From the NCBI GenBank assembly GCA_035542855.1, contig DATKKM010000062.1, forward strand, positions 1 to 61,873: a stretch of DNA of 61,873 nucleotides, given 5' to 3'. Positions 17,931 to 57,271 of this stretch are shown piece after piece. Position 1 is the stretch's first letter. Every line of letters begins with the position of its first letter. A program made the position numbers and the translations under genes. The notes under the pieces are model-generated. The model ran no database searches. It had not been told where the DNA came from and saw only the letters and a program-made list of their open reading frames with translations. Origin of the DNA: Dehalococcoidia bacterium (GTDB lineage: Bacteria; Chloroflexota; Dehalococcoidia; SM23-28-2; RBG-16-64-32).

Positions 17931-17986
17931 ATCTACCCCAGGTGTCCGGCTACACGAAATCTGTAGTACAAAGCATAGAAAAGCGG

Positions 17987-18011
17987 CGTTGCGGGGGGGT
18001 TGCGGGGTTGT
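17987..18011 (-). promoter_or_regulatory. Three CAAC(C/G) hexamers upstream of the GT75 gene
   Basis: Sense strand ACAACCccGCAACCcccccGCAACG, at -81/-73/-62 from ATG 17930. The last two are 11 bp apart. Confidence 0.4.
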
Positions 18012-18050
18012 CTAGGGACAGTCGCGGCAGAAATCCGAGTGCGGCGCGCT

Positions 18051-19823
18051 CTAGGGGCCGATATCTGAATGCTGTGAGGAGAACGTCTGCGCGGCCCCCA
18101 GGTCCACGTCCAGACCGTCCGAGGTGTGGTCCGGGAAGAGTGACCAGGCCCAGGCGCCGGCGTAGCCTTTCGAGTACCAGTCCTCGAAGCGCTGGAGCGC
18201 GTCCGTGTCCGTCCCGCCGTAGAACTCGCCGATGACCAGCGGCTTGTCCAGGTTGTAGCGGTTCTTCACTGTGTTGTAGTCGGTGCAGCGGGCGCACCAG
18301 TTGCCGCTGGCCATGTAGTCGTACCAGTGGGCGGTGTAGTAGTCCAGGCCCACGCCGGTCCAGAACGACAGCCCGTCCAGCATCGCAGAGCCCACGCTGG
18401 CGTAGGCGCTGGAGTTGGCGTGCACGGAAGCAGCTATGGCAGCGACCAGCGCCTGCATGTTCGGCGTCGAAACCTGGTTGTTCCACATCGCGTACTCTGG
18501 CTCGTTGAAGATCTCCCAGCTGATGATGCGCGGGTTGTTGGCGTAGTGGGCGAACAGTTCGCCGAGGACGTCGGCCAGCTCCTGGCGCTGCGTCGGATCG
18601 TTGATCCAGTTCGCCGAAAGGTCCATCGGCGTTGCGAACAGCGTGAACGAGAAGTACAGGTCGTACTGGTCCGCCAGTTGCAGCGCGGCGTCGAAGTCCG
18701 GCCAGATCTGCGAGTTCAGGCCCGTCGGTGCGCCGTTGCCGTCGCGCGTGATCTGCCACGGGTCGCCCGGGAACACCCACCAGCGCACGGTGTGCACGCC
18801 CGCCGCCTGCAACTGCCCGAACTTGGCGGCAATCGCCGACTTGACCGAGCTGTTGGTGACGCCACTGTTCGTCCCGCAGCCGAAGTCGCACTGCCAGTTG
18901 TACCAGGGCATGTTGACCCCGTGCAGGTACCAGTTCTGGCCCTCCCAGGGTATACGCGAACCGGCCGAAAGACCGCTGTCCTGGTTCTTGGACCACTGCA
19001 GCTGCGCCTTTGCCGGGCCGGTGCCCTCGTAGTACTCGACGACGATCCTGTGCACGCCCGTCGTCAGGGTGCGCTGGAAGTTGAACGTGGTGCTCTGGTT
19101 GTGCCACTGGTCGAGGGCCAGCGACCCGTCGATCCAGACCCGGACGCCGTCGTCCACCGTCGCCGTGAACGTGTAGCTGCCGGCGAAAAAGTTGAAGTCG
19201 CCCGTCCAGCGCACGGAGAACGTGTCGGAACCGATGAGCGCATTGGGCGAGCCGGTGCCCCAGTTGAAGTTGACGGTCGGGTCGTAGCGGACGAACTTCA
19301 GCGCGGTGAGGTCGCTGTTGTCGTAGTACTGGCCCACGAACTGGTCCGTCACCACAGGGAGCGCCGGCGCGCACGTCTTGTCGAAGTCCGTCCGCAGGCG
19401 TGAGACGTCCTGAATGTCGATGCGCCCGTCGCCGTTGTAGTCGAAGCGGGCAGAAAAGCCGGCATCGGTGGACAACAGCCCGAACTTGTTGCGAAAAGCC
19501 ACTGCGTCCACGAGGTCTACCTTGGCGTCGTCGTTGAAATCCGTCGGCCAGGCGTCGATGGTTTCGTCGTTCGCGGCGACGGTCAGGCTGCAGGCTGAAG
19601 CGGGGTCTGTCCCCATCGCCGTCTCGGCCGAGTCAGAGAACCCATCGCCGTCCGTGTCGGAGACGGCCAGGCCGGACTTGGAGCCGCAGATCAGCACCGC
19701 TGCCGCCATCAGGAGGACGATGCCAAGGTTCCGAAGGCGGGCGAACAGGCCACCCCACCAGCTCGAATGGGGCGTCGGAGCTGGGTCCAGTGGTGCGATT
19801 CCTCTCATCGTGGTCATTTCCAA
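18051..19823 (-). CDS. Secreted dockerin + PA14 + GH5 glycoside hydrolase (cellulase/mannanase family)
   Basis: Signal/TM. TSP3-like DTDGDGFSDSAETAMGTDP. Dockerin loops DFNDDAKVDLVD and DYNGDGRIDIQD. PA14 (FSVRWTGDFNFFAGSYTFTATVDDGVRVWIDG). GH5 acid/base WEIFNEPE and nucleophile VIGEFYG. Confidence 0.85.
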   Translation of the reverse strand: MEMTTMRGIAPLDPAPTPHSSWWGGLFARLRNLGIVLLMAAAVLICGSKSGLAVSDTDGDGFSDSAETAMGTDPASACSLTVAANDETIDAWPTDFNDDAKVDLVDAVAFRNKFGLLSTDAGFSARFDYNGDGRIDIQDVSRLRTDFDKTCAPALPVVTDQFVGQYYDNSDLTALKFVRYDPTVNFNWGTGSPNALIGSDTFSVRWTGDFNFFAGSYTFTATVDDGVRVWIDGSLALDQWHNQSTTFNFQRTLTTGVHRIVVEYYEGTGPAKAQLQWSKNQDSGLSAGSRIPWEGQNWYLHGVNMPWYNWQCDFGCGTNSGVTNSSVKSAIAAKFGQLQAAGVHTVRWWVFPGDPWQITRDGNGAPTGLNSQIWPDFDAALQLADQYDLYFSFTLFATPMDLSANWINDPTQRQELADVLGELFAHYANNPRIISWEIFNEPEYAMWNNQVSTPNMQALVAAIAASVHANSSAYASVGSAMLDGLSFWTGVGLDYYTAHWYDYMASGNWCARCTDYNTVKNRYNLDKPLVIGEFYGGTDTDALQRFEDWYSKGYAGAWAWSLFPDHTSDGLDVDLGAAQTFSSQHSDIGP

Positions 19824-20212
19824 GACGCGGTACCACCGCGCCGGGTTACAGTAATCCTCAAGCCCCAGGAAGTAAACACGGGAAGAATTTCATTCCTTAC
19901 ACACTGAGGGGGACTTATCCAGAAAACCAGGCAGATAATCTGTCACGCAAAACGGACCCATGCTGCTACCCTAAGCGAATGGACTGAGGGACACAACGTC
20001 CATAACATCAGAGCCAGACAGCTTATGGTAAGAAGCGAAAGCATTAGCAGGCAGTGCGGAAGAGTGGGGCAGGTGGGGTCCTGCGCCGCGCCAACAGCGG
20101 GCTCCTGGCCATCAGGATTGACGGAGCACGGCCAACCCGGCGGCCGTCTTGCTGTAACAGCTCCCAGTCTCCCGCGTCTATTCCGTGTAGTCCTGCAGAA
20201 GGAGAGTTACGC

Positions 20213-22177
20213 GTGCGAAAAACTCCTGCAGCCCGAACGCCCCAACGTTTTCGGGCCGAGAGCAAACCCGCAGCCCCAGACTCGCCCGGGCTCCACGCCA
20301 CCCTTGGCCGGATATTCCCGGTAGCCCGTTTCCTCATCCTCGCCGCCATCGTCGCGATGTTGGCACTGTCGTCCAAGACCACCATCCACGCCGCAACCGA
20401 CAGCGACGGCGACGGCTATAGCGACACCGTAGAGCAGTTCATCGGCACGAACCCGAACGCGGCCTGCAGCTCCACCACCACGCCGAACGACGAGGCTGTG
20501 GACGCCTGGCCGCCGGACTTCAACGACGACAAGACCGTCGACCTGCTGGACGGTAACGTACTGCGCAACCTGTTCAACTCCCACACCGGCGATGGCGTCT
20601 ATCAGAAGCGGTACGACCTGAACGCGGACGGCGCCATTGACCTGCTGGACGCGCAGGCGATCCGTGTCCCGTACGGCACCACCTGCTCCGGCACAACCAC
20701 GCCCACGCCGCCCCCATCGCCGCCTCCGGCGCCCACGCCGGCCCCGAGTACGCCCCCGGGCGGCTGGGCCTTCGAAGAGACTTTCGATGGCGCGCCCGCT
20801 TCACCGCAAGCGTACGCTTCCTCTCGCTTCGATATGGTGGTCGGCGGCAACGACGCAGACGCGATTGTGGACGGGCAAACGATCCTTTCCGATCCGCCGC
20901 TCGTCGAAACCTACGGCACTATCCAGGGCGGCCACGGCTCCGACTGTGGCGCCCCGATTGGGACGTCGGCGAATAACCACGCCATCTCAGTGGATTTCGA
21001 TCCTCAGGGCTTCCAGACCAACACTCGTCCGCAACTCGCCTACATCTGCAACAACCACTTGATGACCACGCTGAAGTCTGGATATGCTGTCGCCTCGCTG
21101 ATGCCACGGCAACTCTTCGATTGGAGCGGCAGAACCGGCACCATTCAGTTCGATACCAACGTGTACGCATTCCAGCGCAGCTGGTGGGACGTCTGGGTCG
21201 TCCCCGAAGACGACATGCTGCTGGAGATGGTCGATCACAATGAAGGTGGAGCCGGCGAGCAGTTCCCCGAGCGGGGCGTCCGGTTCTCGTTCCAGGCGGC
21301 TGTCCCCAGGGTGGGTGTCTTCGACAATTACGGGCTGGTTCAAGAGTGGAAGAACTGGCAAGGATTCAACCAGGCGTTTCCGAGTGATCCCGCCATCAAC
21401 GATCCGAAGACGCGCCGCACCTTCAAGCTGCACCTGAGCCAAACGGGCTTCGGATTCGAGGTGCAGAAGGACGACGGCACCTTCTGGACGTTCTCAGGCT
21501 CGTTCGATCAACCGCTGCCGTTCACCCGCGGAGAAATCCGCATTGAGCACCACGTCTACAACCCGACGAAGGATGGGATATTCGACGATCCGTGGAGCCA
21601 GTACACGTACCACTGGGACAACATTCGATTTGACGGCCCGGTCGTTCCCGCGCGCAGGGCGTTCGAAGCGCCTCCGTCCTACATCACGGCACCTGGTGCT
21701 CCGTTGGACACCCCGAGTAGCACCGTCACTATCAACGTGTCCAGCACTAACCAGCCGCGTCTCATCGGCCATCTCGTTGCCAGCGCCGGCATGTTGGACC
21801 CGGCCAACACCACCCACTGGGCACAGGTGCAGGTGAATGGGGGCCCGTGGATAGACGTGAAGCTGAGAAAACCTATCCCCACGGATACGGGGGAGCGGTT
21901 CTGGTCCACCATTGACACACCGCTCCCAGGCATCGTGACGGGGCAAAACAGGCTCGTGTTCCGGTACAACTCGCGGCCTGCCGATGCAACCTGGCAATGG
22001 GATGGGTTCCATCTCAAGGATCTCGAGATCCAGACGGAGGATCGGGCGATAATCGCGGCTGCTCCCGCCTTGCCGGGTGGCACTTCGGCGGTCATGTCCG
22101 CTGACACGTACGGCTGCGCGTTACAGGCAGCGGCGTTACCGCCGGATGACGGCGCGTCCTTGATCCGAATCTCGTAG
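20213..22177 (+). CDS. Secreted dockerin protein with Pro-rich linker and ~440-aa C-terminal domain of unknown function
   Basis: GTG 20213 follows GAAGGAGAG plus a 6-nt spacer. Signal-like FLILAAIVAMLALS. DSDGDGYSDTVEQFIGTNP. Dockerin loops DFNDDKTVDLLD and DLNADGAIDLLD. PTPPPSPPPAPTPAPSTPP linker. No family recognised for the remainder. Confidence 0.75.
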   Translation: MRKTPAARTPQRFRAESKPAAPDSPGLHATLGRIFPVARFLILAAIVAMLALSSKTTIHAATDSDGDGYSDTVEQFIGTNPNAACSSTTTPNDEAVDAWPPDFNDDKTVDLLDGNVLRNLFNSHTGDGVYQKRYDLNADGAIDLLDAQAIRVPYGTTCSGTTTPTPPPSPPPAPTPAPSTPPGGWAFEETFDGAPASPQAYASSRFDMVVGGNDADAIVDGQTILSDPPLVETYGTIQGGHGSDCGAPIGTSANNHAISVDFDPQGFQTNTRPQLAYICNNHLMTTLKSGYAVASLMPRQLFDWSGRTGTIQFDTNVYAFQRSWWDVWVVPEDDMLLEMVDHNEGGAGEQFPERGVRFSFQAAVPRVGVFDNYGLVQEWKNWQGFNQAFPSDPAINDPKTRRTFKLHLSQTGFGFEVQKDDGTFWTFSGSFDQPLPFTRGEIRIEHHVYNPTKDGIFDDPWSQYTYHWDNIRFDGPVVPARRAFEAPPSYITAPGAPLDTPSSTVTINVSSTNQPRLIGHLVASAGMLDPANTTHWAQVQVNGGPWIDVKLRKPIPTDTGERFWSTIDTPLPGIVTGQNRLVFRYNSRPADATWQWDGFHLKDLEIQTEDRAIIAAAPALPGGTSAVMSADTYGCALQAAALPPDDGASLIRIS

Positions 22178-34034: not shown

Positions 34035-34143
34035 GCTTGTGCTCCAAGACACCATTTTGTTAGCTCCCGTTCTTCCCGGGCGCACCATAGATGCGGATGT
34101 CTATCGCGCGCGCCACCTCACTACTGATTCCGTCATTCTCGTT

Positions 34144-40400: not shown

Positions 40401-40665
40401 AGAACGCGGCTGTGGAACCGGCCGCGCCGCCATCCGCCTGCGCGCTGCCGCCGCTGACTGAGACAGAGCCGCCAGTCCACGTCTTCTGCGTCCAGAGTGA
40501 CGAGTCCATCACCGAACCGAGGAACAGGTCGTCCATGGCCGGGGCGAGCCGCACTTCGCCGCCGGCGTCTTCCGTCACTGCGGTCCCTGAGAGGTCGCCC
40601 AGCGCGAAGTCGGCTCCGGTGGTGTGGAACGTGGTCGTAACCGTGTTCTGTGGGCCGGATTCGCT
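37405..40665 (-). repeat. Three ~0.9-1.2-kb coding super-repeats (approx. 39750-40665, 38580-39470, 37405-38290) separated by FN3-like units (approx. 39470-39750, 38290-38575)
   Basis: Read from the protein-level three-fold repetition. Boundaries are approximate. Confidence 0.7.
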
Positions 40666-45623: not shown

Positions 45624-46782
45624 CGGAAGCGGCAGGCACGGCGCCGGCGCCGTTCTGGGCCCTGCGTCCGAACCTGGTCGCCCGGTGGAGGAGAGCGCCC
45701 AGCTTCTCCGTGCGGCGGCCCATCACCAGCAGCGAAGGCAGCGCGCCGCGCGGACCGTCCCACGGCACGAACTGCACCGCGCGCCGCCAGCGCCCCACGC
45801 GCAGCTCCATCACCTCTGACTCGCGCCAGAGGAGCCGGTGGACGACGCTCCGGCCGGACGCGGCGGCCAGGCGCTCCGCCTCCGGCGGCAGCTGCGTGCC
45901 CAGGAGCATGGTCAGCAGGCGCAGCGTGTACCCCAGCGACGACGAAACGCCCTCGCGCTCTGCCGTCTCCAGGAGCCAGGGCCAGTCCAGATCGGGGCCG
46001 CGCAGGCGCAGGATCAGGTCGATGTCCTTGAACCAGAACAGCCCGCCGAACCCGTGCCGGCTGAGGTGGACGCAGAGGAAGAGGAAGAGATCGTTGAGGG
46101 CAAGGACGCGCGTCTCGTGCCCCTCCAACGTCCAGGCCTCCGCGCGTTGCCAGACATCGCTCAGGAACCGCGGCTTCACCCCGATCTGGAAGTGATCGTA
46201 GTGCACGTCCAGTGAGATGTGCGTCTCTGAGTGGGTGAACGCCGTCTCATATGGCCACTCGCAGGTGCCGTGGTTTGCCGCTTCCAGCCCGCCGTGGTCT
46301 TCGGCCACCCTGTAGCCCAGGTCTGCGCACACTTCCATCGCCCGGGAGTGGGTTTCGATTGGCAGAAGCAGATCAATATCGCCGTAAGGGCGGAGCGCCG
46401 GGTCCGGGTAGAAGCGGTTGGCTATCGCCGGGCCTTTCAAGAGGACGCTGGGGACATCGTGGGCGCTGAGCGCCTTCTGGACGCGGACCAGCTCCCCGCT
46501 AAGCATCAGCCCCTGGAAGGCGGCGCGCATGGCGTTGTTGCGGATGACGCCCAGCGTCTTTGCCGGAACCGCTTCGCTCAACCCAGAGGCGGCGATGCTC
46601 TGCAGAACCCAGCCGGACATGCGGTGCTGGACGCAGTGGAAGGCCACCTTGTCCCAGTCCCGCACCGCCGACGCCGCCGCGGCCAGGCAGCCGTTTGCCG
46701 CCGGCCGCTCTCCCCGGACGGCGAGGGTGACGAACGCCGCTTCCGGTGACTGCCGCGAGGTGAAAGGTGACCGCATCTTCAT
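45583..46782 (-). CDS. NTP_transf_5-type 'uncharacterised nucleotidyltransferase' (lasso/RiPP-associated)
   Basis: YGDIDLLLPIETHSRAMEVCADLGYRV, and a position at the end of the lasso operon. Its 3' end overlaps the convergent GT4 gene by 41 nt. Confidence 0.65.
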   Translation of the reverse strand: MKMRSPFTSRQSPEAAFVTLAVRGERPAANGCLAAAASAVRDWDKVAFHCVQHRMSGWVLQSIAASGLSEAVPAKTLGVIRNNAMRAAFQGLMLSGELVRVQKALSAHDVPSVLLKGPAIANRFYPDPALRPYGDIDLLLPIETHSRAMEVCADLGYRVAEDHGGLEAANHGTCEWPYETAFTHSETHISLDVHYDHFQIGVKPRFLSDVWQRAEAWTLEGHETRVLALNDLFLFLCVHLSRHGFGGLFWFKDIDLILRLRGPDLDWPWLLETAEREGVSSSLGYTLRLLTMLLGTQLPPEAERLAAASGRSVVHRLLWRESEVMELRVGRWRRAVQFVPWDGPRGALPSLLVMGRRTEKLGALLHRATRFGRRAQNGAGAVPAASATAGKRTGAGADE

Positions 46783-46788
46783 CGAACC

Positions 46789-47595
46789 CTAGTAGTGCGA
46801 AAGCGACCCGTTGGCCTTGGCGGAACGGACGGCCAGCTCGAACACGAGCAGGCTGATAGGCAGAAGCAGGGCGAATCCGGCCAGCACCGCGATATCGCCT
46901 GCCGTCGCGGAGTTGCTGCTGCCGTCCGCCAGGAGCGCATCCCGCAGCGCGGACATGGTGTGTGTTAGCGGCAGCAGCGGCGAGATCTTCTCCAGCCAGC
47001 CCGGCAGAAGTGATGTTGGGTAGAGCACGCCGCTCACCAGCACCGATGACGTGATCAGGAACGGACTGATCGGGTCGGACTGCTTGAAGCGCAGCACGAA
47101 AGACCCGGCGAGGATGCCGAGGCCGCCGAAGATGGCCACGGTAAGCGCCAGCACCACGATGGCGGTAAAGATGCCGCCTGCACGCAAATCGACGCCCAGC
47201 AACAGCCCGCCGACAACCAGCGAGACGGCCAGCCGGATAGCCGCGAAGGTCAGGCCGTACAGCGATGAACCGAAGAGGAACATGGCGCTGGACGTGCGGG
47301 ACTTGAGCATCACCTCCAGTGTCCCGGTGACCTGGGCGCCGCGGATGGATGATGTGAACTGGCCGGCCGCCGTTTGCGCAAAGAGCAGTGCAGACGCCCC
47401 GATCAGCGCGAAGCCGAAGTAGTCGTTGCCGTAGGCGGCCAGCGAGTCCGGCTGGCCCTGGTCAACCAGTTTGCCGACGAAGTTCAATGTGATCAGGCTG
47501 AAAACCAGCATCACGATCGTCTGGATGAAGCTCAGCCGGTAGCTCAGGGCGATCCGGAAGTCCCGCTGCAGGAAGGCCACGGACTTGGCGATCAT
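46789..47595 (-). CDS. ABC-2-type transporter permease
   Basis: Six predicted TM helices, ABC-2 layout, ATGA-type overlap with the ATPase gene. Confidence 0.75.
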   Translation of the reverse strand: MIAKSVAFLQRDFRIALSYRLSFIQTIVMLVFSLITLNFVGKLVDQGQPDSLAAYGNDYFGFALIGASALLFAQTAAGQFTSSIRGAQVTGTLEVMLKSRTSSAMFLFGSSLYGLTFAAIRLAVSLVVGGLLLGVDLRAGGIFTAIVVLALTVAIFGGLGILAGSFVLRFKQSDPISPFLITSSVLVSGVLYPTSLLPGWLEKISPLLPLTHTMSALRDALLADGSSNSATAGDIAVLAGFALLLPISLLVFELAVRSAKANGSLSHY

Positions 47596-48599
47596 ACGGT
47601 CACCTCCCGTGACGTCAGGCGGTCAACCAGCTCCTTGAGCGGCGCCGCCCGGGAGAAGGCGCGGATGGTGACGCCCGCCGCCGTAATCGCCGTGATCAGC
47701 TCCGGCAGGGACATCTCTTCGTTGTCGCACCAGACTTCCAGCTCGTGGTGGCCGTTGGCCCGGCTCAGCGTGGCGTCGCGTACGCCCGGCAGCTCCCGCA
47801 GTCTCGGCAGCTCCAGTGCGCTCGCGTCATCGATGACGATGGTCAGTCCGCGCAGGCCATGCATCGCCTGCTGCAGGTCTGACGTTCTCAGCTCGGCCTG
47901 GATCTTGCCCTGCACCAACACAGCGGTACGATCACAAACAGCCTCCGCTTCCTCGGCGCGGTGAGTGACCAGGATGATCGTCATCCCGTGCTCCGTGGAG
48001 AGGCTCCGGACCAGTGACCAGATCACGCGGCTCTCCGTCGGGTCCACGCTGCGTGTCGGCTCGTCGAGCAACAGCAGTTGCACTCGGGACAGGAGCGCGC
48101 GGGCCAGCGCGAACCGCTGGCGGACGCCGGCAGAGTACGTGGCGAACGGCTGCTCGATATAGCCGCCGAGGCCGAGGCGTTCGCTCAGCTCATCGATGCG
48201 GCTGCGGGCCGCGCGGCCGTGCAGGTCGTCCAGGGCGGCGAAGAACTCCAGGTTCTCGCGCCCGGTGAGGCGCCAGTAGAAGCTGCGGTCATCGGTGAAG
48301 GAATAGGCGGTCATCGAGCGCACGCGTCCACCGGCCCGGGTCACGTCCTGCCCGCAGACCCTCGCCACGCCGGAATCCGGCTGCACGAGTCCGGCCAGCA
48401 CCTTGAGCAGCGTCGTCTTGCCGACGCCGTTCGATCCGAGCACTCCGACAACCTCGCCCGGTTCCACGGCCAGGGAAACGCCGTCAAGCACGCGCTTCGT
48501 CGGCCGCTTGCCCCGGTTGCGGATCATCTGGCGCAGCGACGTGTTCAGGGGATATTCCTTGATGACGTCGCAGACTTCAACGATTGACATCACACACAC
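47592..48599 (-). CDS. ABC transporter ATP-binding protein
   Basis: Walker A GSNGVGKTT, signature YSAGVRQR, Walker B LLLLDEP, plus a C-terminal extension. Confidence 0.9.
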   Translation of the reverse strand: MCVMSIVEVCDVIKEYPLNTSLRQMIRNRGKRPTKRVLDGVSLAVEPGEVVGVLGSNGVGKTTLLKVLAGLVQPDSGVARVCGQDVTRAGGRVRSMTAYSFTDDRSFYWRLTGRENLEFFAALDDLHGRAARSRIDELSERLGLGGYIEQPFATYSAGVRQRFALARALLSRVQLLLLDEPTRSVDPTESRVIWSLVRSLSTEHGMTIILVTHRAEEAEAVCDRTAVLVQGKIQAELRTSDLQQAMHGLRGLTIVIDDASALELPRLRELPGVRDATLSRANGHHELEVWCDNEEMSLPELITAITAAGVTIRAFSRAAPLKELVDRLTSREVTV

Positions 48600-49592
48600 T
48601 CAAACTGCCGAAGCTGCCGGCGCACCGGCGAGAATGGCGCCCGTCAGCTCACCCAGCCGGTCCAGGGACCGCGGCGCCAGGACGGCGTTGACCTGCGTTT
48701 GTTCGACAATGCGAGAGAAGACTTCCATCTGGCGGCCCTGCAACTCCGGCTCGCGCGCCAGCTGGCGGGCGTTGTAGGAGTTGCCAATGAGGCGCAGCAG
48801 CGCCTCGGGGCCGGTGAGCCGCTTCACTTCAACGTCGCGCTCTGGAAGCGCGGGAAGCAGGACGCTGATCGAGGCCAGCGGCGCCGGCTCGTCGTACGTG
48901 CCGCCGAGGTCGTGCGCCGTCACCACGCGCTTCTCCAGCCAGGAGGCCAGGCGCGGAGACTTCTCCCACTCCGTGCCGGGGTACAGGCGGCTGAGCGTCT
49001 CCGGGACCAGCTTCATGGTGGCCGGGCCAGGGAGCACGGTCACCTCCGGCCCGCTGGCGTCCAGTGCGATGCACCCGTCAGTTAGCAGCTTGCAGCCGCG
49101 CGCCATGAGGGCTGCTGCGGTGGTCGACTTGCCGAAAGTGGATGGCGCGACAAGAGCGTAAGCCTTGCCTTCGTGGACGACAGCGCTGCCGTGCAGGCAG
49201 ACCAGCCCCTGCAGCTGCAGCGCGAACCCCAGGACGGGTCCCGCCGCGGCGGCGGCGATGTCGGCCAGGTTCTCGCTTTCCGGCGCCCAGTAGATGCGGG
49301 CGCCGTCCGGTGGCACCAGGTAGTTGGCCAGGCCGGGATAGTGCCAGTGGTAGCGGTCGCCGTCCCACTTCAGGGAACAGACCAGCTGGCCGGCGTGGTC
49401 CAGTGCGTCGTACACGGTGCGGGCGTCATCGGCCGGCTCGGGCCGGCGGGACATGCGGACGACGATTGACGCCTCGCTCTTCTTCACCTCGCTGGAGGGC
49501 AGGAAGAGAGAGAGGCGGAGGTCGCTCACGACGTTCCTGCCAAAGACTCGGTATTGGTGACGTGAAACTCGTCTAGCGGTGCGCAATCTCAT
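48600..49592 (-). CDS. HPr-kinase/phosphorylase-like protein (lasso-peptide kinase family)
   Basis: CLHGSAVVHEGKAYALVAPSTFGKSTTAAALMARGCKLLTDGCIAL (HprK C-terminal P-loop block). Located directly downstream of the precursor ORF. Confidence 0.7.
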   Translation of the reverse strand: MRLRTARRVSRHQYRVFGRNVVSDLRLSLFLPSSEVKKSEASIVVRMSRRPEPADDARTVYDALDHAGQLVCSLKWDGDRYHWHYPGLANYLVPPDGARIYWAPESENLADIAAAAAGPVLGFALQLQGLVCLHGSAVVHEGKAYALVAPSTFGKSTTAAALMARGCKLLTDGCIALDASGPEVTVLPGPATMKLVPETLSRLYPGTEWEKSPRLASWLEKRVVTAHDLGGTYDEPAPLASISVLLPALPERDVEVKRLTGPEALLRLIGNSYNARQLAREPELQGRQMEVFSRIVEQTQVNAVLAPRSLDRLGELTGAILAGAPAASAV

Positions 49593-49665
49593 TCACCCAT
49601 CTCTTTGCCGGGCCGGGCTTCGCGTAAGAAGTGTGTCCCGCGGCCACAAAACTAGGGTAGGAAGA

Positions 49666-49833
49666 CTATTCGCCGCTCAGGTTGCCGGGCGGCGGCGTGC
49701 CGCCGCTGTCCTTGAAGACGACCAGGTAGTCGGCTGGGCCGTGCTCCTTGTTGAAGTCAAAGCCCGCCGTAACCGCCCGAATGTCACCGTATGCCTGCAG
49801 AGCAGGCTTCTGGTATGGCCTTTTCTCTCCCAT
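49666..49833 (-). CDS. Lasso-peptide precursor (55 aa), not in the ORF track
   Basis: Hand translation: MGEKRPYQKPALQAYGDIRAVTAGFDFNKEHGPADYLVVFKDSGGTPPPGNLSGE*. AAGGGGGG lies 8 nt upstream. Leader has YxxPxL...T(-2). Core starts with Gly1 and has Glu7. It sits in the 255-bp gap between the cyclase and kinase genes. Confidence 0.8.
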   Translation of the reverse strand: MGEKRPYQKPALQAYGDIRAVTAGFDFNKEHGPADYLVVFKDSGGTPPPGNLSGE

Positions 49834-49847
49834 ATACACATCCCCCC

Positions 49848-51743
49848 TTACGTTTGTTTTAGTCGGTCAACCGTGTGACCGCGGGACACCGAATTTAAGT
49901 CCAGCCACAGGCCTGCGGTGATCGCCCGCCAGAGCCCATGCCACCACGGGTGGCGACGTGACTGGTAGTCTGCCAGCTCCCCGTTCAGGAGCCGGTTGTT
50001 GATGTACGGGAGCTGGCTCAACGGGCCCGTGAGCGCTCTGTCCACGCGGCCCCGTTCCTTTTCCAGCAGACCCTTGTTCATAAGCTGATTGAATACGCCG
50101 TATCCCCTGCGCATAGTCACCAGTTCCGGCAGGCGGGATTTCATCGCCGCCCGCATCAGAGCCTTGGTCTGGCCGGCGTCGCGGTGCACCCAGTCCGGCA
50201 CGCGGTGCACGGCGTCTATCACGCGCAGGTCCCACAGCGGAGACCGTATTTCCAGGCCGAACTGCGATCCGGCCCACCGTTCCCGCCAACCGGCCAGGGG
50301 AACCATATCCCGCATGTGCATCCGCCAGAACCGGCGATAGGCGCGTCCGCGGGCCCAGGACACCGCTGGCAGGGGCAGATCCAGCGCGCCCTCCAATCCC
50401 AGTTGCTTCATGGCGGCCGGATCCACCCAGCACGGTAGCGGCTGCAAGGAAGGCCGGCCCCGCACCCTGCGGTACTGCTCTCTGATGCTGCTGGGTACAA
50501 GCGGCAGGACGGCGTTGTTCATGAGCAGCGCACCCAGCGGGTAATCGAAGCGCCGGCTCCAGGCCTTTGCCTCGTTCAGGGCGCGGACAAAGTGCCCACG
50601 GGTGAGGAGCACTGCGATGTAAGCGTTTGTGCCGGTGAAGAATTCATCTCCCCCGGCGCCATCAATGAGAACGTCCACGCCCTCTGCGGCCCCTGCCCGC
50701 GCCAACTCCACCATCAGCGGCGCCTGCATAGGCACGTTTGGCTGATCAAAGGCTTCGTCGGCCAGCCTTGCTGAGCTGAGGCTCCAGCATTCGTCCGCAT
50801 CCACTTCGGTGACCGGCATGCCGAGCCGGCCGGCCACGGCCCTGCTGTACTCGCGTTCATCCAGCCCGTCGAGTGTGGCCGAGTAAGCGCTCAAGGCTCG
50901 CACGTCCGGGCTGAGTTCGGCCGCCACCGATGCGACGTAGGAGGAGTCCAGGCCGCCGCTGAGAAGAATGGCGGCCCCGGAGTTCGAACGGAGCACAGCC
51001 GCGACGGCTTCCTGGAACGCGGCGTCTACCGCCTCCACGTAGTCTTCGCGCCGCTTGAGCTTGAGCTCCGGCAGCGGGCGCGGCCGCCAGTATTCGCGGA
51101 CCGTGATTCCGTCTTCGTCCGCCAGCAGGTAGTGAGCCGGTGGCACCTCGGACACAGCGCGGTAAGGCGTCGAGCCGGGCTTCGGCGGGGCGCCGGTGAG
51201 GTGACGGGCCAGGAACTCCTGGTCGATTTCGTCGCGAATGCCTGCCGCCAGCAGCTGACGCGGCTCCGAACCGATGGCCAGCCCACCGGCTGTGCGCGCA
51301 AAGACCAGGGTGCGGAATCCCTGCTGGTCGCGCGCGGCGAAGAGCCGCCGCCTGGGTCCGTCCCACAGGGCGAAAGCGAAGTTGCCGAGCATGTGCTCAA
51401 GGCAATTGACGCCCCACCTGTCGTATGCGTGCACGATGAGGTCCGCGTCCGTCAGGACCGGCACGTCCGGGTTGTGCAGGGCCAGCTTGTTGATCAGGTC
51501 CCGGCGGTTGTCGATGCGCCCATCAAGCGCGATCTGATAGCGGCCGCCGAGCGTGATGAGGGGCAGCCCTTCGGAGCGGGCTTCCGGCGTCGTGGGCAGC
51601 AGCCGCTGGCCCAGCGCGATTTCGGCGCCTGTCCAGGTGCTGACGATCGGCCCGCGGCGCTCGATCTTGTCGAGCAGGATCTGGAGGACGTCCTTCAGGG
51701 CGTCCGGCGAAAGGCGGCCGCTGACGGCGGCGATCCCGCTCAT
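49848..51743 (-). CDS. Lasso-peptide cyclase (asparagine synthetase B-like, C protein)
   Basis: 631 aa. N-terminal Ntn-like domain, PP-loop AILLSGGLDSSYVA. ATGA overlap with B2. Confidence 0.85.
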   Translation of the reverse strand: MSGIAAVSGRLSPDALKDVLQILLDKIERRGPIVSTWTGAEIALGQRLLPTTPEARSEGLPLITLGGRYQIALDGRIDNRRDLINKLALHNPDVPVLTDADLIVHAYDRWGVNCLEHMLGNFAFALWDGPRRRLFAARDQQGFRTLVFARTAGGLAIGSEPRQLLAAGIRDEIDQEFLARHLTGAPPKPGSTPYRAVSEVPPAHYLLADEDGITVREYWRPRPLPELKLKRREDYVEAVDAAFQEAVAAVLRSNSGAAILLSGGLDSSYVASVAAELSPDVRALSAYSATLDGLDEREYSRAVAGRLGMPVTEVDADECWSLSSARLADEAFDQPNVPMQAPLMVELARAGAAEGVDVLIDGAGGDEFFTGTNAYIAVLLTRGHFVRALNEAKAWSRRFDYPLGALLMNNAVLPLVPSSIREQYRRVRGRPSLQPLPCWVDPAAMKQLGLEGALDLPLPAVSWARGRAYRRFWRMHMRDMVPLAGWRERWAGSQFGLEIRSPLWDLRVIDAVHRVPDWVHRDAGQTKALMRAAMKSRLPELVTMRRGYGVFNQLMNKGLLEKERGRVDRALTGPLSQLPYINNRLLNGELADYQSRRHPWWHGLWRAITAGLWLDLNSVSRGHTVDRLKQT

Positions 51744-52198
51744 GCTGCGTCCTCCGCCATGACTGCGGCGTCCGGGAGGCGCTCCGTGCCCTGGAGCACA
51801 GTGAAGACGGCGCAGCGGTCTCGCGAATCGTTGACGGGTTCGCCGGCGATCTCGATCCAGGCGTGGGCCTGGATGCCCTGTTCGCCGTTGCGAACGCCGA
51901 AGCGCAGGCGGCTGTTCATTCCCCTGCGGCGCAGCATCCAGCTGAGAGCCAGAGAGCGCTGCAGGCAGCGGGCCTTGCGCGGAAGCCGCCTGGCAACCGC
52001 GCCAACGTCTCGCGCCAGCAGGTACGCCTGCTGAATGTCTTCTGGCTTGCCAGTGTCGCGGGCTAGCGCGTGGTCTGTCCAGCGCCGCAAGAGAACGCGC
52101 TTGGGCAGCGCGAAGCCGGCAGCCACCAGGCAGAGGCAGATGGCAGCTTCCAGTTTGGCGCGCAATCGCGCCGGGCGGCGCAGTTTAATGAGCCCCAC
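51740..52198 (-). CDS. Lasso-peptide leader peptidase B2 (transglutaminase-like Cys protease)
   Basis: CLQRSLALSWMLRRRGMNSRLRFGV....GIQAHAWIEIAGEPVND (Cys/His catalytic blocks). GTG 52198 overlaps the B1 3' end by 14 nt. Alternative start: 52261. Confidence 0.8.
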   Translation of the reverse strand: MGLIKLRRPARLRAKLEAAICLCLVAAGFALPKRVLLRRWTDHALARDTGKPEDIQQAYLLARDVGAVARRLPRKARCLQRSLALSWMLRRRGMNSRLRFGVRNGEQGIQAHAWIEIAGEPVNDSRDRCAVFTVLQGTERLPDAAVMAEDAA

Positions 52199-52481
52199 CG
52201 TTCGTCCTGTTGGGCTTGATGAGACCCTTGGCCCGGAGCGACTCAAGGAAGAACTCGACATCCTCTCTGACGTCTGAGCCGTTGATCTCGAAGTTCTCCC
52301 TCACGCTCTCGCAGATGCTGGGCAAGGAAGAGCCTGCCTCCAGCATGCCCCAGATGTGCGTGCCGACGTTGTTCAGCCCGTAGTACTCGCCTGTCTCCAG
52401 GTCAAGCATCACGGCCTCGCCATCGACGATCCTGTGAAGAACGCCGGGCTTAACCTCGAACTGTGAGGCTGATGCCTCCAT
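52185..52481 (-). CDS. PqqD-family RiPP recognition element (lasso B1)
   Basis: IVDGEAVMLDLETGEYYGLNNVGTHIWGML...EDVEFFLESLRAKGLI. ATG 52481 has AGGAAGGA upstream. Confidence 0.85.
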   Translation of the reverse strand: MEASASQFEVKPGVLHRIVDGEAVMLDLETGEYYGLNNVGTHIWGMLEAGSSLPSICESVRENFEINGSDVREDVEFFLESLRAKGLIKPNRTNGGAH

Positions 52482-52543
52482 TGTCCGTGTTCCTTCCTGC
52501 CCTGTATGCACGGCCTCCCATCCGAATCCGGACAGGAGCGCCA

Positions 52544-52780: not shown

Positions 52781-53803
52781 TTAGGAAGAGCAGCCGGAGG
52801 CGTCATCGACGGCGATCGTGAGCAGAAGGCTCAGCGCATCGCGCGGATCCACCCTGTGATCGCAGTTGAGGTCGCCCTTGATCGCATTGCCGGAGACGCT
52901 GCCGATGTTGCGGCACCCCGTCGCGGCCGGCACCCCGCCGACGTACTTCAGAAGCAGGCTGAGGTCGCCGGTGTTGACCTGGCCGTTGCAGTCCATATCG
53001 CCAAGCAAGTTGGCCGGGGCTGTCGGCGTTAGCGTGGGCGTTGGCGTCATCGTGCCCGTAGGCGTCGGCTGGAACGCCTCCGTTGGCGTCGGAGTCGGCG
53101 TGTTCGTCGGCCCCGGAGGCGGAGATGCCACCTGGGTGGGCGTTGGCGTTGCCGTCCCGCCGCCGCTGCAGTTCGCGTTCGCCGCCACCTGCGCGTTCAG
53201 CACGTTCGTGACGCTGATTATGTTGCCGGCGTCATCGGTCGCCGTGACTCCCGTAAGCGTGAGGTTGCTGACCCCGGTGCCCGCCTGGCCCTGCAGCGTG
53301 ACACGCGCAAGCACGCCGGGTCCGACTTCTGAGGCGCCCGACGGCTCGATGCCCTTGCCGAAGTCCAGGGCGCTCAGGCCCGCAGTGCCGTCGCTGGACG
53401 TCGTATCGCCGAAGGGGATCACTGTGCTGCCACTGGCCTGGGCCAGGAGCTGATTGTAGTCGACGGCGGTGACGTGCACCTTGCTGGCGTCGTAGTTGAG
53501 GACGAACTGAAAGCCGGAGAGACCACGGTCGGAAGCCACCTGGTCCTCGAAGATGTCGATCGCCAGAGTCTGCCCGTTGTTCACGCGGTTGCAGGTGTCC
53601 CTGGTCGTCGCCACGCCCACCTGCGTTCGCGCCGTGTTGCCGGACGTGTTCATGTCGATGCCGAGGTTGGTTATGGGGCTGGTGGGCGCCGCTGTGGCGT
53701 GCTGGCCGCCGCGGACGAAGAGAACCAGCGCGATCAGGCCAAGGGCGACGATTGCGAGGTTGATTCCGGCCTGGGCGACTCGGCGGGGCGGGATTCTGAT
53801 CAT
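52781..53803 (-). CDS. Membrane-anchored cohesin-like + (TP)n linker + type-I-like dockerin protein
   Basis: AAGAGGTG + 6 nt + ATG 53803. Signal-anchor INLAIVALGLIALVLFV. Cohesin-like block [18 protein letters not shown]...GVLARVTLQG...LTLTGVTATDDAGN. Dockerin loops DMDCNGQVNTGD and DLNCDHRVDPRD. Confidence 0.65.
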   Translation of the reverse strand: MIRIPPRRVAQAGINLAIVALGLIALVLFVRGGQHATAAPTSPITNLGIDMNTSGNTARTQVGVATTRDTCNRVNNGQTLAIDIFEDQVASDRGLSGFQFVLNYDASKVHVTAVDYNQLLAQASGSTVIPFGDTTSSDGTAGLSALDFGKGIEPSGASEVGPGVLARVTLQGQAGTGVSNLTLTGVTATDDAGNIISVTNVLNAQVAANANCSGGGTATPTPTQVASPPPGPTNTPTPTPTEAFQPTPTGTMTPTPTLTPTAPANLLGDMDCNGQVNTGDLSLLLKYVGGVPAATGCRNIGSVSGNAIKGDLNCDHRVDPRDALSLLLTIAVDDASGCSS

Positions 53804-53993
53804 GAGTAACACCTCTTGAGCATGGGGCGCGTGCTTGCGCGGTGCTTACACAAACTAGACGTTGAACCGTGGGAGGCGTTACAAGATGCGCTACCCGGCG
53901 CTCCTGAGAAGCGCATCTGAACCGGACTAGTCACAGCCGGTTGCACCGCCAACCCCACGACTCTTGCGCATTAAAGAGTGTTCGGCGGTCCCT

Positions 53994-54042
53994 GGAGGCG
54001 GGACCCCAGAATTGCATTATGTATATTCTAGGGTCCGCCTCC
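53994..54042 (-). terminator. Long hairpin between the two cohesin paralogs (12-bp stem, 1 bulge, ~23-nt AT-rich loop)
   Basis: GGAGGCGGGACCC...GGGTCCGCCTCC, downstream of the 54128 stop. It could be a terminator or a leader structure. Confidence 0.4.
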
Positions 54043-54127
54043 GTACCGTGCTAGACGTAACTGCTACAAAGGAGCTTCAACTCTTTCGCATTCCCACGTC
54101 TGCCGGCGCGTTATCCACATTTTGCGC

Positions 54128-55225
54128 CTAACCGCCAAGCTTCAGGAGGTTCGAGATGGAAGGCGCCTTTGGCGTCGCGTGGGCGCTGGTCAGCTTGCAC
54201 CTGGGACTCCTGTGACCGATTGCCCATAACCAGCCGCCCAGCCAGCCGCGGAACCTGCACGTCTGTGGGGAGACGATCGGCGTGGGCTTCGGCGTCGGCG
54301 TTGCGGTCGGGCGCGGCGTGGCGCCGCCGACTTGCCTCGGCGTGGGCGTGGGGGTAGGAGTCCTGGTTATGGCCGGCGTGGCCGTCGGCGTTGGCGTTGG
54401 CGTTGGCGTTGGCGTAGGACCGATCGTCGACGTCGGCGTGGGCGTCGGCGTCGAAGAGGCCGGAGCGATCGTCGCCGGTTTCGTCGGCGTTGGCGTTGGT
54501 GTCGCGGCCGCTGTGGCGGTAGGCGTTGGCGTCGGCGACGGCGTGCGCGTCGGCGTGGGTGATGGCGTGCGCGTCGGCGTCGGCGATGGCGTGGCCGTCC
54601 CGCTGCAGCTGCTGTTCAAGGCCACCTGCGCGTTCACGATGGTCTGCACCGGTATCACTTCGCCGGCATCGTCCGTGACGGCCGTGCCTGTCAGCTGCAG
54701 GGTGCTGATGCCGGTGGACCCCGTCGGCGTGAGCGTGATCCGGGCCAGCAGCCCCGGGCCGGTCTCGGACGCGCCCGAAGGCTCGATCCCTTTTCCGAAG
54801 TCGATCTCGCTGAGGGAGGCCGTGCCGTCGCTGGAGGACGTTTCGCCGAAGGGGACGACGTTGCTGCCGCCGGCCTGGGCCAGGAGCTGGTTGTAGTCGA
54901 CGGCGGTGACCCGGACCAGGTTGCTATCGTAGTTGAGGACGAACTGGAAGCCGGAGACGCCACGATCGGACGGCACCTGGTCGGCGAAGACGTCCACAGT
55001 GCCGGCCTGTCCGCTGCTCAGAGCGATGCAGGGGTCGGGGGTGGTCACGTCCGTGCGGGCGGTGTTGCCCGACGAATTGGCGTCGATGCCGACTACCGAG
55101 ATCTGGCTGGATGAGACTGCGGTCGCGCCCTGGCCTCTGATGAGCAGGCCCAGCGTTAGCAGGGCGGCGGCGACGAAGGCCAGGTTCAGGAACGTCCGCA
55201 AAGTTCGGGGCGACAGTCTATTCAC
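54128..55225 (-). CDS. Membrane-anchored cohesin-like protein with very long (TP)n linker and no dockerin
   Basis: GAGAGGTG + 6 nt + GTG 55225. Signal-anchor [17 protein letters not shown]. Cohesin-like block [18 protein letters not shown]...[10 protein letters not shown]. About 120 aa of T/P-rich linker. Short Trp/Cys-rich C-terminus. Confidence 0.6.
54386..54412 (-). repeat. Hexanucleotide microsatellite (GGCGTT)x4 inside the (TP)n linker coding region
   Basis: gcgttggcgttggcgttggcgttggcg, embedded in ~330 bp of degenerate GGCGTN repeats (about 54290-54620). Confidence 0.7.
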
Positions 55226-55658: not shown

Positions 55659-56408
55659 TCAGGAGGCGGGCGGCTGGGTCGCGGAAGGTGGCGCTGTGAC
55701 GATGGGGTACGGCGCCTCGAAGTCTCCTTGCTGCGGCTGCTCGCTCTGCGTAGCCGTTAGCGTGTACGTCGAAACGGGGCTGGTCGAAGTCTCGGACAGG
55801 AGCAGCCCATCGTCCGTGAAGCAACCCGTGGCCTCGGTGGTTAGTTGGCCGAACGGGAGCGTCAGCGTGATGCACGTCGTGGACCGGCCGAGCACCTGCT
55901 GCTCCGGGGCCGCCGCAAGTGACAGCGTCTGGGCGAGGAGGTCGTCGATGCTCGTTGCCGTGGGCCTCTGCACCAGCGGCGCGCCCACGATCGCGGACTG
56001 CGCTTCGTCTGCCGGGACGATGGCGCAACTCGGGTTGACGTTGGGGTAGGCTGCGCACGCATACGCCGTCTCGGGGAGCACGAGGTACGCCGTCGTGGAG
56101 CCGGTCTTGACGATGTCTTCTCGCACACTGGGAGGCTGCTGGTAATAGACCAGCTGGCCGTCCTGGCTTTGGGATCCGATCACGCTGTGGAGGTTGTATG
56201 TAATCTTCGTCTCCGCCGCCGTCCATTTGCCGAGCAGCTCACGCAACTGCTGCTCCAGCGCCGGCTCCAGCGTCGGGCCAGTCCGCGAAGGGGTGGGAGA
56301 GCCTCCCTCGTCATCGCCGCCGCAGGCCGCCAGCGTCAGCGCCAGCAGCGCGGTCAATGCGCACAGCCAGGCGGTCATGTTGCCGCGCACGCCCATCAAC
56401 GAAGTCAT
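55659..56408 (-). CDS. Putative lipoprotein, unknown function
   Basis: Lipobox LTLAAC|GGDDEGG. The start is uncertain (56408, 56378 or 56444). Paralog of 56492-57271. Confidence 0.6.
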   Translation of the reverse strand: MTSLMGVRGNMTAWLCALTALLALTLAACGGDDEGGSPTPSRTGPTLEPALEQQLRELLGKWTAAETKITYNLHSVIGSQSQDGQLVYYQQPPSVREDIVKTGSTTAYLVLPETAYACAAYPNVNPSCAIVPADEAQSAIVGAPLVQRPTATSIDDLLAQTLSLAAAPEQQVLGRSTTCITLTLPFGQLTTEATGCFTDDGLLLSETSTSPVSTYTLTATQSEQPQQGDFEAPYPIVTAPPSATQPPAS

Positions 56409-56491
56409 AGCCTGAGTCGCGAGTATAGAGTGGGGGCCCGCCACGCGCCAGCGCGGGGCGGGCCCCCGTTTGTTCAGAGGTCCGGTGTGCC

Positions 56492-57271
56492 CTAGCCGGT
56501 GGGTATGGTGGTGGCCGGGTACGGTGGCTCGAAGTCGGAGTCGGAGACGTCGCTGCTGTAGTCCGTCGCCTCCATCTTGTAGGTGCCGTCAGAGCTCTCA
56601 GTCTGGGTCAGCAGAAGGACGCCGCTGTCGCTGAAGCAGAACCTGTCTGTTTCGCCGTTGTCAGTCCCGGAGAAGCAGGTCGCGTCCTGGCCGGCGATGT
56701 TGTCGCTGGACTTGTCGACTTCTATGCCGGACAGTTCAGCCGCCGAGACCAGGGCGTCAATGTAGGCCGGGCTGAAGACCGCCCCCAGGGAGCCCAGGCC
56801 GCTGCTGTCGGTGCCGGTGCCTGGCAGCTGGATGCACGTCTGCTCGGAGCTCGAGCACGAATACGTCCAGTCTGGCGTGGTGATGTAGATCGTGGTGTCT
56901 CCGTTCTCGTCCGTCGATTCGAACCGCGCGTTGGGCGGCTTCGAGTAGAACGTGACGTTGGTGACGGAGCCGTCGGTGTCGGTCTGCTGGTAGGTGACTT
57001 TGCCCGTGACCTGCTGGATGTCTTCGCCCAGCGACGAAAGTTCGTCGAGGACGTCGTCCGTAGAGGCCGGCTCTGTCGCCTCGCTTGTCTCGGTTGCTCC
57101 TCCGGTGTTCGAAGCGCCGCCCGCATGGGTTGCGGTGGGGGTGTTGCTTCCGCCGCTATCGTCGTCATCGCCGCCTCCGCACGCCGCGAAGGCGAGCAGT
57201 GCGACCAACGCTCCTAGGATCATCGCCAGCGGCAGCCAGCGTGGGTGGTTACGCATCCTATCTCCTCTCAT
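56492..57271 (-). CDS. Putative lipoprotein, unknown function
   Basis: Lipobox LLAFAAC|GGGDDDD. Shares layout and the C-terminal motif (DFE.PYP) with 55659-56408. Confidence 0.6.
   Translation of the reverse strand: MRGDRMRNHPRWLPLAMILGALVALLAFAACGGGDDDDSGGSNTPTATHAGGASNTGGATETSEATEPASTDDVLDELSSLGEDIQQVTGKVTYQQTDTDGSVTNVTFYSKPPNARFESTDENGDTTIYITTPDWTYSCSSSEQTCIQLPGTGTDSSGLGSLGAVFSPAYIDALVSAAELSGIEVDKSSDNIAGQDATCFSGTDNGETDRFCFSDSGVLLLTQTESSDGTYKMEATDYSSDVSDSDFEPPYPATTIPTG

Follow-up and report, generated by a model that had tools for sequence, protein, structure and literature searches.

Do two neighbouring genes of a Dehalococcoidia bacterium encode the sockets and plugs of a cohesin–dockerin assembly at the cell surface? 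The genes, here called A (upstream) and B (downstream), lie on the minus strand of the 61,873-nucleotide stretch that was analyzed (contig DATKKM010000062.1 of assembly GCA_035542855.1; hereafter, the window). An earlier note on this DNA had read them as tandem, membrane-anchored cohesin-like proteins, one of them also bearing a dockerin. Cohesin–dockerin pairs are among the strongest known protein "plug and socket" systems and are widely used in biotechnology; to our knowledge, their natural roles outside cellulolytic Firmicutes are mostly unknown. A surface cohesin–dockerin assembly proved to be the best reading of the locus. We are highly confident that A and B carry true cohesin and dockerin modules. 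That they act in such an assembly is, judging from their sequences, moderately probable, and any particular cohesin–dockerin pairing within the locus would be much less so.

The proteins encoded by A and B are 61% identical across 212 amino acids (aa; E = 5e-77), a similarity far above chance for two such sequences, and they share the first part of their layout. In A, a hydrophobic N-terminus is followed by a cohesin, a long Thr/Pro linker and a Trp-rich tail; in B, it is followed by a cohesin, a short Thr/Pro linker and a dockerin (Table 1). A direct repeat of 51 nt covers both start regions and contains a Shine–Dalgarno-like AGAGGTG upstream of the starts. Together with the N-termini of the orthologues, this repeat indicated that translation likely starts at 55225 (GTG) in A and at 53803 (ATG) in B; position 55225 is also where the earlier note had ended the pair. 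The plus-strand open reading frames (ORFs) overlapping A and B are by-products of the 65% GC content and of the reversed Thr/Pro linkers.

Orthologues of gene A were found in three related loci, L001, L002 (partial) and L003, and those of gene B are P0002 (L001/L002) and P0003 plus P0004 (L003). In L003 (positions 2979–3958), a frameshift divides the B orthologue in two, with the cohesin on P0003 and the dockerin on P0004; the break may be natural or due to misassembly. Independent assemblies retain both paralogues, together with the A tail and the dockerin, at 62–75% identity, which suggests selection for the pair. As far as sequence can tell, A and B are real, expressed-looking paralogues.

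It is effectively excluded that these genes are an artefact, either as chance ORFs or because misassembly of its linker deprived gene A of a dockerin. Misassembly is possible in principle, as Thr/Pro linkers are repetitive DNA; nevertheless, A and B show strong paralogy and homology, the same reading frame and the same tail recur in independent assemblies, and each of ten metagenome runs contained 85% or more of the 31-mers sampled from the locus. A lost or frameshifted dockerin was also considered, and no remnant was present after gene A in any frame, in agreement with the description of the upstream paralogue as lacking this module. DNA identical to the locus is present in many wetland and peat metagenomes.

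The main evidence concerns a module of about 170 aa present in both proteins, which in A spans from a clade-specific N-terminal extension (GIDxNxxGN...C) through a C-terminal conserved Cys. With the Pfam Cohesin model (PF00963), gene A reached 27.9 bits against a curated cut-off of 24.1, whereas gene B stayed under it; among the family members compared, 33 of 62 matched this model at E <= 0.01. Searches of the Protein Data Bank (PDB) sequences by phmmer with the single proteins returned no cohesin (B yielded dockerin matches only and A low-complexity linker matches only), so a family profile was needed to reach them. A profile of five sequences reached the cohesins of C. cellulolyticum at E = 0.008, and one of 28 sequences retrieved 13 cohesins at E < 1e-3 (best 5.3e-5), with all 34 matches up to E = 1 being cohesin-bearing chains.

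Structure prediction pointed the same way. The model of gene B predicted from the single sequence was unusable (predicted local distance difference test, pLDDT, of 44) and was replaced by an AlphaFold2 model based on an alignment of 62 sequences, which was all-β and had a pLDDT of about 96 across the cohesin module. When this model was compared to the PDB with Foldseek, the best 50 matches, at E values between 3e-9 and 3e-5, were all cohesins and covered types I, II and III; their template modelling scores (TM-scores) relative to the target were mostly 0.6–0.75, and lower for multi-module chains. Among them were OlpA and OlpC bound to dockerins, cohesins of the C. perfringens toxin complex and the non-cellulosomal cohesin of A. 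fulgidus. The predicted fold thus agrees with the nine-stranded flattened β-sandwich (jelly-roll) of cohesins.

The earlier note had called the module a cohesin from its residue pattern only, and had proposed a PF00963 search and a structure prediction, with a different β-sandwich as the contrary outcome. Its call is now backed by hidden Markov model (HMM), profile and fold evidence; the PF00963 search bore it out for A and not for B, and no different β-sandwich was seen. Four independent lines of evidence (Pfam scores, Pfam matches of the family members, profile searches and predicted fold) thus identify the modules as genuine but divergent cohesins, and each of the two secreted proteins has this as its only globular module, the dockerin of B apart. 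A scan of the whole window with the family HMM detected only these two; extra cohesin modules, including in the large secreted proteins of 2440 and 1879 aa (Table 1), were not found.

The same data bear on whether modules with a cohesin fold are dockerin receptors in this clade at all. They could instead be surface β-sandwich heads with another ligand (a glycan or another protein) or with a structural role, while the B dockerin binds something unrelated. Since every significant match by fold or by profile is a cohesin, in many cases one whose structure was solved with a dockerin bound, and since dockerins occur on the same polypeptide in about one fifth of the family members examined and also in the same window, we regard this explanation as unlikely. 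It would nonetheless fit the marginal sequence similarity to proven cohesins, the clade's own N-terminal extension and conserved Cys pair, which the Pfam model does not cover, and the finding that most family members examined are anchored single-domain proteins without a dockerin.

The plug is encoded at the C-terminus of gene B. This region passed the Pfam Dockerin_1 (PF00404) cut-off with 26.3 bits against 22.9 over aa 270–329, and both of its 12-residue loops are canonical, with Asp or Asn at positions 1, 3, 5, 9 and 12, which is the pattern of type I dockerins. A helix is predicted after each loop (model residues 243–251 and 284–297). The start-to-start spacing of the loops (42 aa) is somewhat long, and matches to solved dockerins were weak (best 8ajy_B, E = 0.018). 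The two-loop, type-I-like dockerin assigned to the downstream paralogue in the earlier note is thereby upheld, as are the T/P-rich linkers of both proteins: in A, 40 Thr and 36 Pro were counted in the 118 aa from 213 to 330, slightly beyond the linker, and the count for B is given in Table 1. The linker of A varies in length among the orthologues and is longer in L001 and L003. The B dockerin also has four conserved cysteines: in each repeat, loop position 4 is a Cys and a second Cys lies some 20 residues past the loop, a pattern common to P0002, P0004, P0019, P0056 and P0111. We infer that these cysteines could form disulfide staples, each joining a loop to a helix end; further putative disulfides are Cys74–Cys215 in the B cohesin (ORF numbering from 53812) and the Cys bracket in the tail of A.

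Two further proteins of the window bear dockerins, both above the Pfam cut-off, which brings the number to three, one of them a GH5 enzyme, as previously noted. In the GH5 protein, aa 287–563 matched β-mannanases (2c0h, E = 1e-16; 5y6t; 3vup; 4oou), and the genome hence contains a dockerin-bearing glycoside hydrolase of the order dockerin–PA14–GH5 mannanase-like. The other protein, of 707 aa, yielded only dockerin matches in the PDB, and its C-terminal portion of about 490 aa matched no Pfam family and no solved structure. Both genes are divergently oriented and have a common N-terminal cassette consisting of a signal peptide, a bacterial TSP3 repeat and a "WPxDFNDD...DxNxDGxID" dockerin; the same "WP" flavour is present on the family cohesin proteins P0124, P0139 and P0150. 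Because they belong to the same 62-kb cell-envelope island, both were counted as potential partners of A and B. An ORF at 17950–19374 overlaps the GH5 ORF in another frame and had no Pfam match.

On these grounds, A and B would join in a calcium-dependent cohesin–dockerin docking at the cell surface. A would be the cell-attached base, while B would be exported and attach by its dockerin to a cohesin of A, of another B or encoded elsewhere, leaving its own cohesin free either for a further link of the chain or for exoproteins tagged with a dockerin, of which the GH5 mannanase and the 707-aa protein are examples. Two versions are live: in one, B docks on A or on B and lengthens the chain; in the other, both cohesins hold the dockerins of the enzymes and that of B goes to a cohesin encoded elsewhere.

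How far the two cohesins could differ in their ligands was assessed from their fixed differences. Between three A and three B orthologues, 14 positions over the N-terminal 215 aa are fixed differently, including Lys111 to Leu, Gln174-Gly175 to Thr-Pro and Thr185 to Gln (residues counted from position 53812). Four of the 14 sit in the signal region ahead of the module and few lie on predicted strands; the two groups also differ by a 3-residue indel in the N-terminal extension. With only 14 such positions, the A and B cohesins probably share their type of ligand, that is, recognise the same dockerin type, and two distinct specificities were down-weighted. A shared ligand type in turn weakens a model in which B is a specificity-converting adaptor.

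Several observations weigh against a surface assembly of this kind. The cohesin module of gene B scored 18.2 bits, under the Pfam cut-off, and the dockerin part of its AlphaFold model is of low confidence (pLDDT 45–65). Neither A nor B contains a surface-layer homology (SLH) module by Pfam, an LPXTG-like or other sortase motif, or a match to a carbohydrate-binding module (CBM) family. The window encodes no multi-cohesin scaffoldin: there is one cohesin per protein, and two modules in the 62 kb. The dockerin-bearing enzymes are encoded 31 kb from A/B, and their dockerins are N-terminal, of the "WPxDFNDD" flavour and without loop cysteines, in contrast with the C-terminal dockerin of B, which has Cys in its loops; the cargo and B dockerins therefore need not share a receptor. 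Finally, no RNA runs containing the locus were found in the run search.

The difference in flavour would also suit another arrangement, a self-assembling surface fibre or coat in which the B dockerin binds the A and B cohesins, B polymerises head-to-tail on an A base and enzymes are not recruited. The scarcity of fixed differences between the two cohesins, few of them on predicted strands, fits this arrangement as well, and there are precedents: in R. bromii Amy4, a cohesin and a dockerin are combined on one polypeptide with documented self-recognition, and A. fulgidus is cited as a presumed case of multimerisation (PMC4611034). We nevertheless consider such a fibre improbable, though a little less so than cohesin-fold modules that are not dockerin receptors: direct evidence for it is lacking, the model of B predicts no confident intramolecular or self interaction, and the dockerin-tagged enzymes in the same island would be left unexplained.

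Returning to the docking of B and of tagged exoproteins on anchored cohesins, the term "minimal scaffoldin system" used in the earlier note is no more than plausible. Of the traits of such systems, a dockerin-bearing glycoside hydrolase (the GH5 protein) is encoded in the window; the several cohesins, CBM, SLH module and sortase motif of a scaffoldin are absent. A and B fail the stricter definition of a cellulosomal scaffoldin, because no multi-cohesin protein, CBM or recognised anchor is present in the window.

How A and B would be held at the cell was addressed through their termini. Both N-termini consist of a basic stretch and a hydrophobic segment of 18–19 residues, directly followed by AxA-like sites (ATA/V in A and ATA/A in B, the stroke marking the putative cleavage point). 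Proteins of the wider family that start with the same hydrophobic segment usually end in a C-terminal transmembrane anchor. Given this pairing and the AxA-like sites, cleavage as a signal peptide is the more probable fate of the segment, ahead of a role as signal-anchor. The hydrophobic N-terminus on which the earlier note based its membrane anchoring is thus present, whereas its role as an anchor was not borne out; a signal-anchor is still plausible, and a cleavable signal peptide is at least as likely.

A and B are unusual in the family in having no C-terminal anchor; at this place, A has the Trp-rich loop and B the dockerin. The loop of A follows the pattern C[RK]x[RK]GW[LF]GGW[LF]W...C, and the tail is kept in three independently assembled lineages while the length of the linker changes. 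Relatives of this tail were absent from the 194 proteins collected, save P0011 (the gene A orthologue of L001), and from a large protein database. The tail is a candidate for a new envelope-binding, attachment or ligand element. Two ways of attaching A can be envisaged: either its N-terminal hydrophobic segment would remain in the membrane, or, closer to the family, the signal peptide would be cleaved and a Thr/Pro stalk, probably glycosylated, would end in the Trp-rich cationic loop gripping the envelope.

Table 1. Positions of the features of genes A and B and of other genes in the window; residue numbers within A and B count from the longer ORF starts (55234 for A and 53812 for B).
Feature	Position	Strand	Description
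Gene A (upstream paralogue)	54128..55225	(-)	365 aa from GTG 55225; ORF extends to GTG 55234
Gene A N-terminal hydrophobic segment	55139..55195	(-)	aa 14-32; Kyte-Doolittle maximum 2.25 over 19 aa; then GQGATA/V
Gene A cohesin module	54599..55123	(-)	Pfam Cohesin aa 74-201; family HMM 168-282 bits; alignments
Gene A Thr/Pro linker	54272..54598	(-)	~110 aa
Gene A C-terminal tail	54131..54271	(-)	47 aa; Cys-bracketed cationic Trp/Gly-rich loop
A-B intergenic region	53804..54127	(-)	324 nt; probable promoter or 5' leader of gene B
Gene B (downstream paralogue)	52781..53803	(-)	340 aa from ATG 53803; ORF extends to GTG 53812
Gene B N-terminal hydrophobic segment, AGINLAIVALGLIALVLFV	53714..53770	(-)	aa 15-33; Kyte-Doolittle maximum 2.67; then GGQHATA/A
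Gene B cohesin module	53168..53695	(-)	Pfam below cut-off; AlphaFold model, Foldseek, family profile
Gene B Thr/Pro linker	53009..53167	(-)	~53 aa; 17 Thr and 15 Pro in 53 aa
Gene B C-terminal dockerin	52784..53005	(-)	Pfam Dockerin_1; two calcium-loop plus helix repeats
Gene B dockerin 12-residue loops, DMDCNGQVNTGD and DLNCDHRVDPRD	52964-52999, 52838-52873	(-)	
Candidate cargo, GH5 protein	18051..19823	(-)	TSP3 repeat, dockerin (29.3 bits), PA14, GH5 β-mannanase-like domain; Pfam, PDB sequence matches
Candidate cargo, 707-aa secreted protein	20054..22177	(+)	TSP3 repeat, dockerin (29.8 bits); Pfam
2440-aa secreted protein	26766-34088	(-)	Subtilase, glucose/sorbosone dehydrogenase-like, PKD, many FN3 / purple-acid-phosphatase-N-like repeats
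1879-aa secreted protein	37405-43044	(-)	FN3 and Ig repeats, weak GH16-like segment
Lasso PqqD-like chaperone	52185-52511	(-)	
Lasso B2 protease	51740-52261	(-)	83.5 bits vs 33
Lasso cyclase	49848-51743	(-)	
Lasso precursor	49666-49839	(-)	Lasso leader 23 bits vs 19; leader ends ...YGDIRAVTA; predicted core GFDFNKEHGPADYLVVFKDSGGTPPPGNLSGE
Lasso HprK-like kinase	48600-49592	(-)	
Lasso ABC ATPase (exporter)	47592-48599	(-)	
Lasso ABC-2 permease (exporter)	46789-47595	(-)	
Lasso NTP_transf_5 nucleotidyltransferase	45583-46782	(-)	

The family to which the A/B modules belong is large. A word-indexed homologue search gave only five relatives, and the family was therefore defined by an exhaustive profile search, which returned 2069 representative proteins at E <= 1e-3, of which 813 passed the stricter limit of E <= 1e-10. 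Among species-representative genomes, 13 related loci were identified, nine of them in metagenome-assembled genomes (MAGs) of Dehalococcoidia, Chloroflexia or other Chloroflexota, and the others in Nanoarchaeota, Elusimicrobia, Planctomycetota and one uncultured archaeon; among reference genomes, Chloroflexota MAGs hold the closest relatives of A/B. Almost every member either has no name or is annotated as "hypothetical protein", and one is a "cohesin domain-containing protein" at NCBI. The clade is characterised by the N-terminal extension [GA][IV]DxDxxGN, which lies outside the Pfam cohesin model, and by two near-invariant Cys.

The architecture of 153 of these proteins was compared. The commonest (65 proteins) comprises an N-terminal hydrophobic segment, one or two modules, a Pro/Thr/Ala linker and a C-terminal hydrophobic anchor; in 14, one or two modules precede the C-terminal anchor and an N-terminal hydrophobic segment was not detected. 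About a fifth contain one or more dockerin-like loops, and 16 have at least three modules. Many C-terminal anchors of the family are preceded, as judged by eye, by an LPxTG- or LAxTGG-like motif, and several loci hold two or three family genes side by side. Four metagenomic relatives of 1453–2234 aa, P0006–P0009, contain seven tandem modules and are, by their module content, scaffoldin-like proteins of uncultured bacteria. In P0006, Asp-rich repeats that by eye resemble TSP3 follow the modules.

A bolder reading would be that Chloroflexota own a phylum-wide cohesin–dockerin surface display, in which a separate cohesin subtype, probably stabilised by disulfides, is combined with two or more flavours of dockerin. 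Within it, A would be an anchor through its new Trp-rich C-terminal loop and B an adaptor or extender; the two together would display TSP3-dockerin exoenzymes such as the GH5 mannanase, and the seven-cohesin relatives would be true scaffoldins. We hold this broader proposal to be possible but doubtful; if true, it would be the first cellulosome-like architecture described in the phylum.

The DNA around the two cohesin modules was also inspected. The spacer between A and B equals coding DNA in its conservation, with a mean column identity of 78% and long invariant blocks among the window, L001 and L003. It contains a hairpin (GGAGGCGGACCC...GGGTCCCGCCTCC, at about 53990–54045), two copies of ACGTCTAG (53855 and 54051) and the stretch GTAACGCC, complementary to the Shine–Dalgarno region of gene B. 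No Rfam family matched the spacer, and three compensatory pairs were counted in an alignment that varies too little for a covariation test. The spacer is probably a promoter or 5' leader of gene B.

Directly downstream of B, and on the same strand, lies a complete lasso-peptide cluster (45583–52511). In L001, L002 and L003, A and B are likewise followed by the lasso cluster, and in L018 a cohesin gene of 47% identity adjoins a rearranged cluster of the same type. This proximity raises the question of whether A/B might be an accessory of the cluster, helping, for instance, to retain the peptide at the surface, to export it or to confer immunity. The loci concerned come from fairly close relatives, however, so that shared ancestry explains the synteny, and none of the more distant family members (L004–L017) has lasso genes nearby. 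A gap of 269 nt separates B from the cluster, and the separately conserved region upstream of B suggests, without proving it, independent regulation. Moreover, we know of no lasso system that uses cohesins, which also counts against this role. We accordingly give an accessory function very little credence and treat the synteny as shared ancestry, pending a wide survey.

With regard to the rest of the window, sugar-nucleotide enzymes, GT2 and GT4 glycosyltransferases and a Wzy-like protein mark it as a cell-envelope island. Neither of the two large secreted proteins contains cohesin or dockerin modules; the GH16-like match in the 1879-aa protein passed the whole-protein cut-off, whereas no single aligned stretch did. 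Just upstream of A, there are two tRNA genes (Leu and Cys) and a terminator-like hairpin, and no island boundary repeat of these tRNA genes was found. Upstream of the tRNA genes, two tandem paralogue-like genes at 55659–56444 and 56492–57271, both on the minus strand, encode proteins of about 260 aa with lipoprotein-like N-termini (LAACGG and FAACGG). This pair matched no Pfam family and gave one weak NCBIfam 'lipo-invert' tail match under the cut-off.

Altogether, abundant uncultured bacteria of wetlands and soils carry a large, almost unannotated radiation of cohesin sockets, in which some proteins combine socket and plug in a single chain and some relatives are scaffolds with seven sockets. 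Should binding be confirmed, the radiation would provide new orthogonal cohesin–dockerin specificities, reveal how glycanases and other exoproteins are arranged at the surface in carbon-rich peat, and offer a test of the conserved cysteines as the mark of a disulfide-stabilised subtype. The locus is a solid annotation gain for an uncharacterised clade rather than a surprise, and a new kind of system is not demonstrated; a few conserved features await an explanation, namely the pattern of cysteines, the tail rich in Trp, the A–B spacer and the neighbouring lasso cluster.

Compared with the type I pairs of clostridial cellulosomes, such as the C. cellulolyticum CipC cohesin (1G1K/2VN5) or the C. 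thermocellum CipA cohesin with the Xyn10B dockerin (1OHZ), the A/B module has the same predicted fold and its best sequence-profile matches, and the B dockerin likewise has two canonical 12-residue calcium loops, each with a predicted helix. Sequence identity is 12–20%. Unlike them, A and B add the N-terminal segment (GIDxDxxGN...C) and the near-invariant Cys pair, and the B dockerin has four conserved Cys. A and B also have one cohesin per protein and no CBM, and their relatives are wetland Chloroflexota rather than Clostridia.

In C. thermocellum, SLH modules anchor OlpA and OlpC to the cell. These surface proteins (3UL4, 4DH2), which are among the structural matches of A/B, likewise bear one type-I-like cohesin and can hold dockerin-bearing proteins directly. 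In contrast, there is no SLH module here, and anchoring would use the N-terminal segment or the Trp-rich tail.

In our literature search, no paper joining cohesin, dockerin and Dehalococcoidia was found, and the A/B pair is of a kind already documented, in a phylum for which we found no description. The earlier note was correct in placing it outside the clostridial context, which in itself has precedents: cohesins and dockerins outside cellulosomes are documented from all three domains of life, and binding between archaeal partners is specific (PMC9012536, summarising Peer et al. 2009, Bayer et al. 1999 and Haimovitz et al. 2008). A. fulgidus (2XDH) and ANME archaea have cohesin–dockerin modules in hosts not known as cellulose degraders, with variable partners and an unclear function (PMC9012536). 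The 2XDH structure superposed on the gene B model with a TM-score of 0.72 and a root-mean-square deviation of 3.2 Å. The A/B clade differs from these archaeal systems in being bacterial and very large, and in including seven-cohesin proteins.

As in gene B, a cohesin and a dockerin are on one chain in Amy4 and in adaptor scaffoldins of the Ruminococcus bromii amylosome, where self-recognition and docking onto the anchored cohesin protein Sca2 are documented (PMC4611034; PMC4959524). Amy4 differs in carrying a catalytic GH13 module, whereas gene B encodes no enzyme domain; binding is proven for Amy4 and putative for gene B. Lastly, in Cellulosilyticum lentocellum, a working minimal system of one cohesin and one dockerin, Clole_2599 and Clole_2598 (ClcC/ClcD), is reported, in which the two modules are on separate proteins and cellulase activity rises on complex formation (PMC13487519). 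Compared with ClcC/ClcD, the locus studied here has two cohesins, a dockerin on one of the cohesin proteins, and enzymes encoded 31 kb away.

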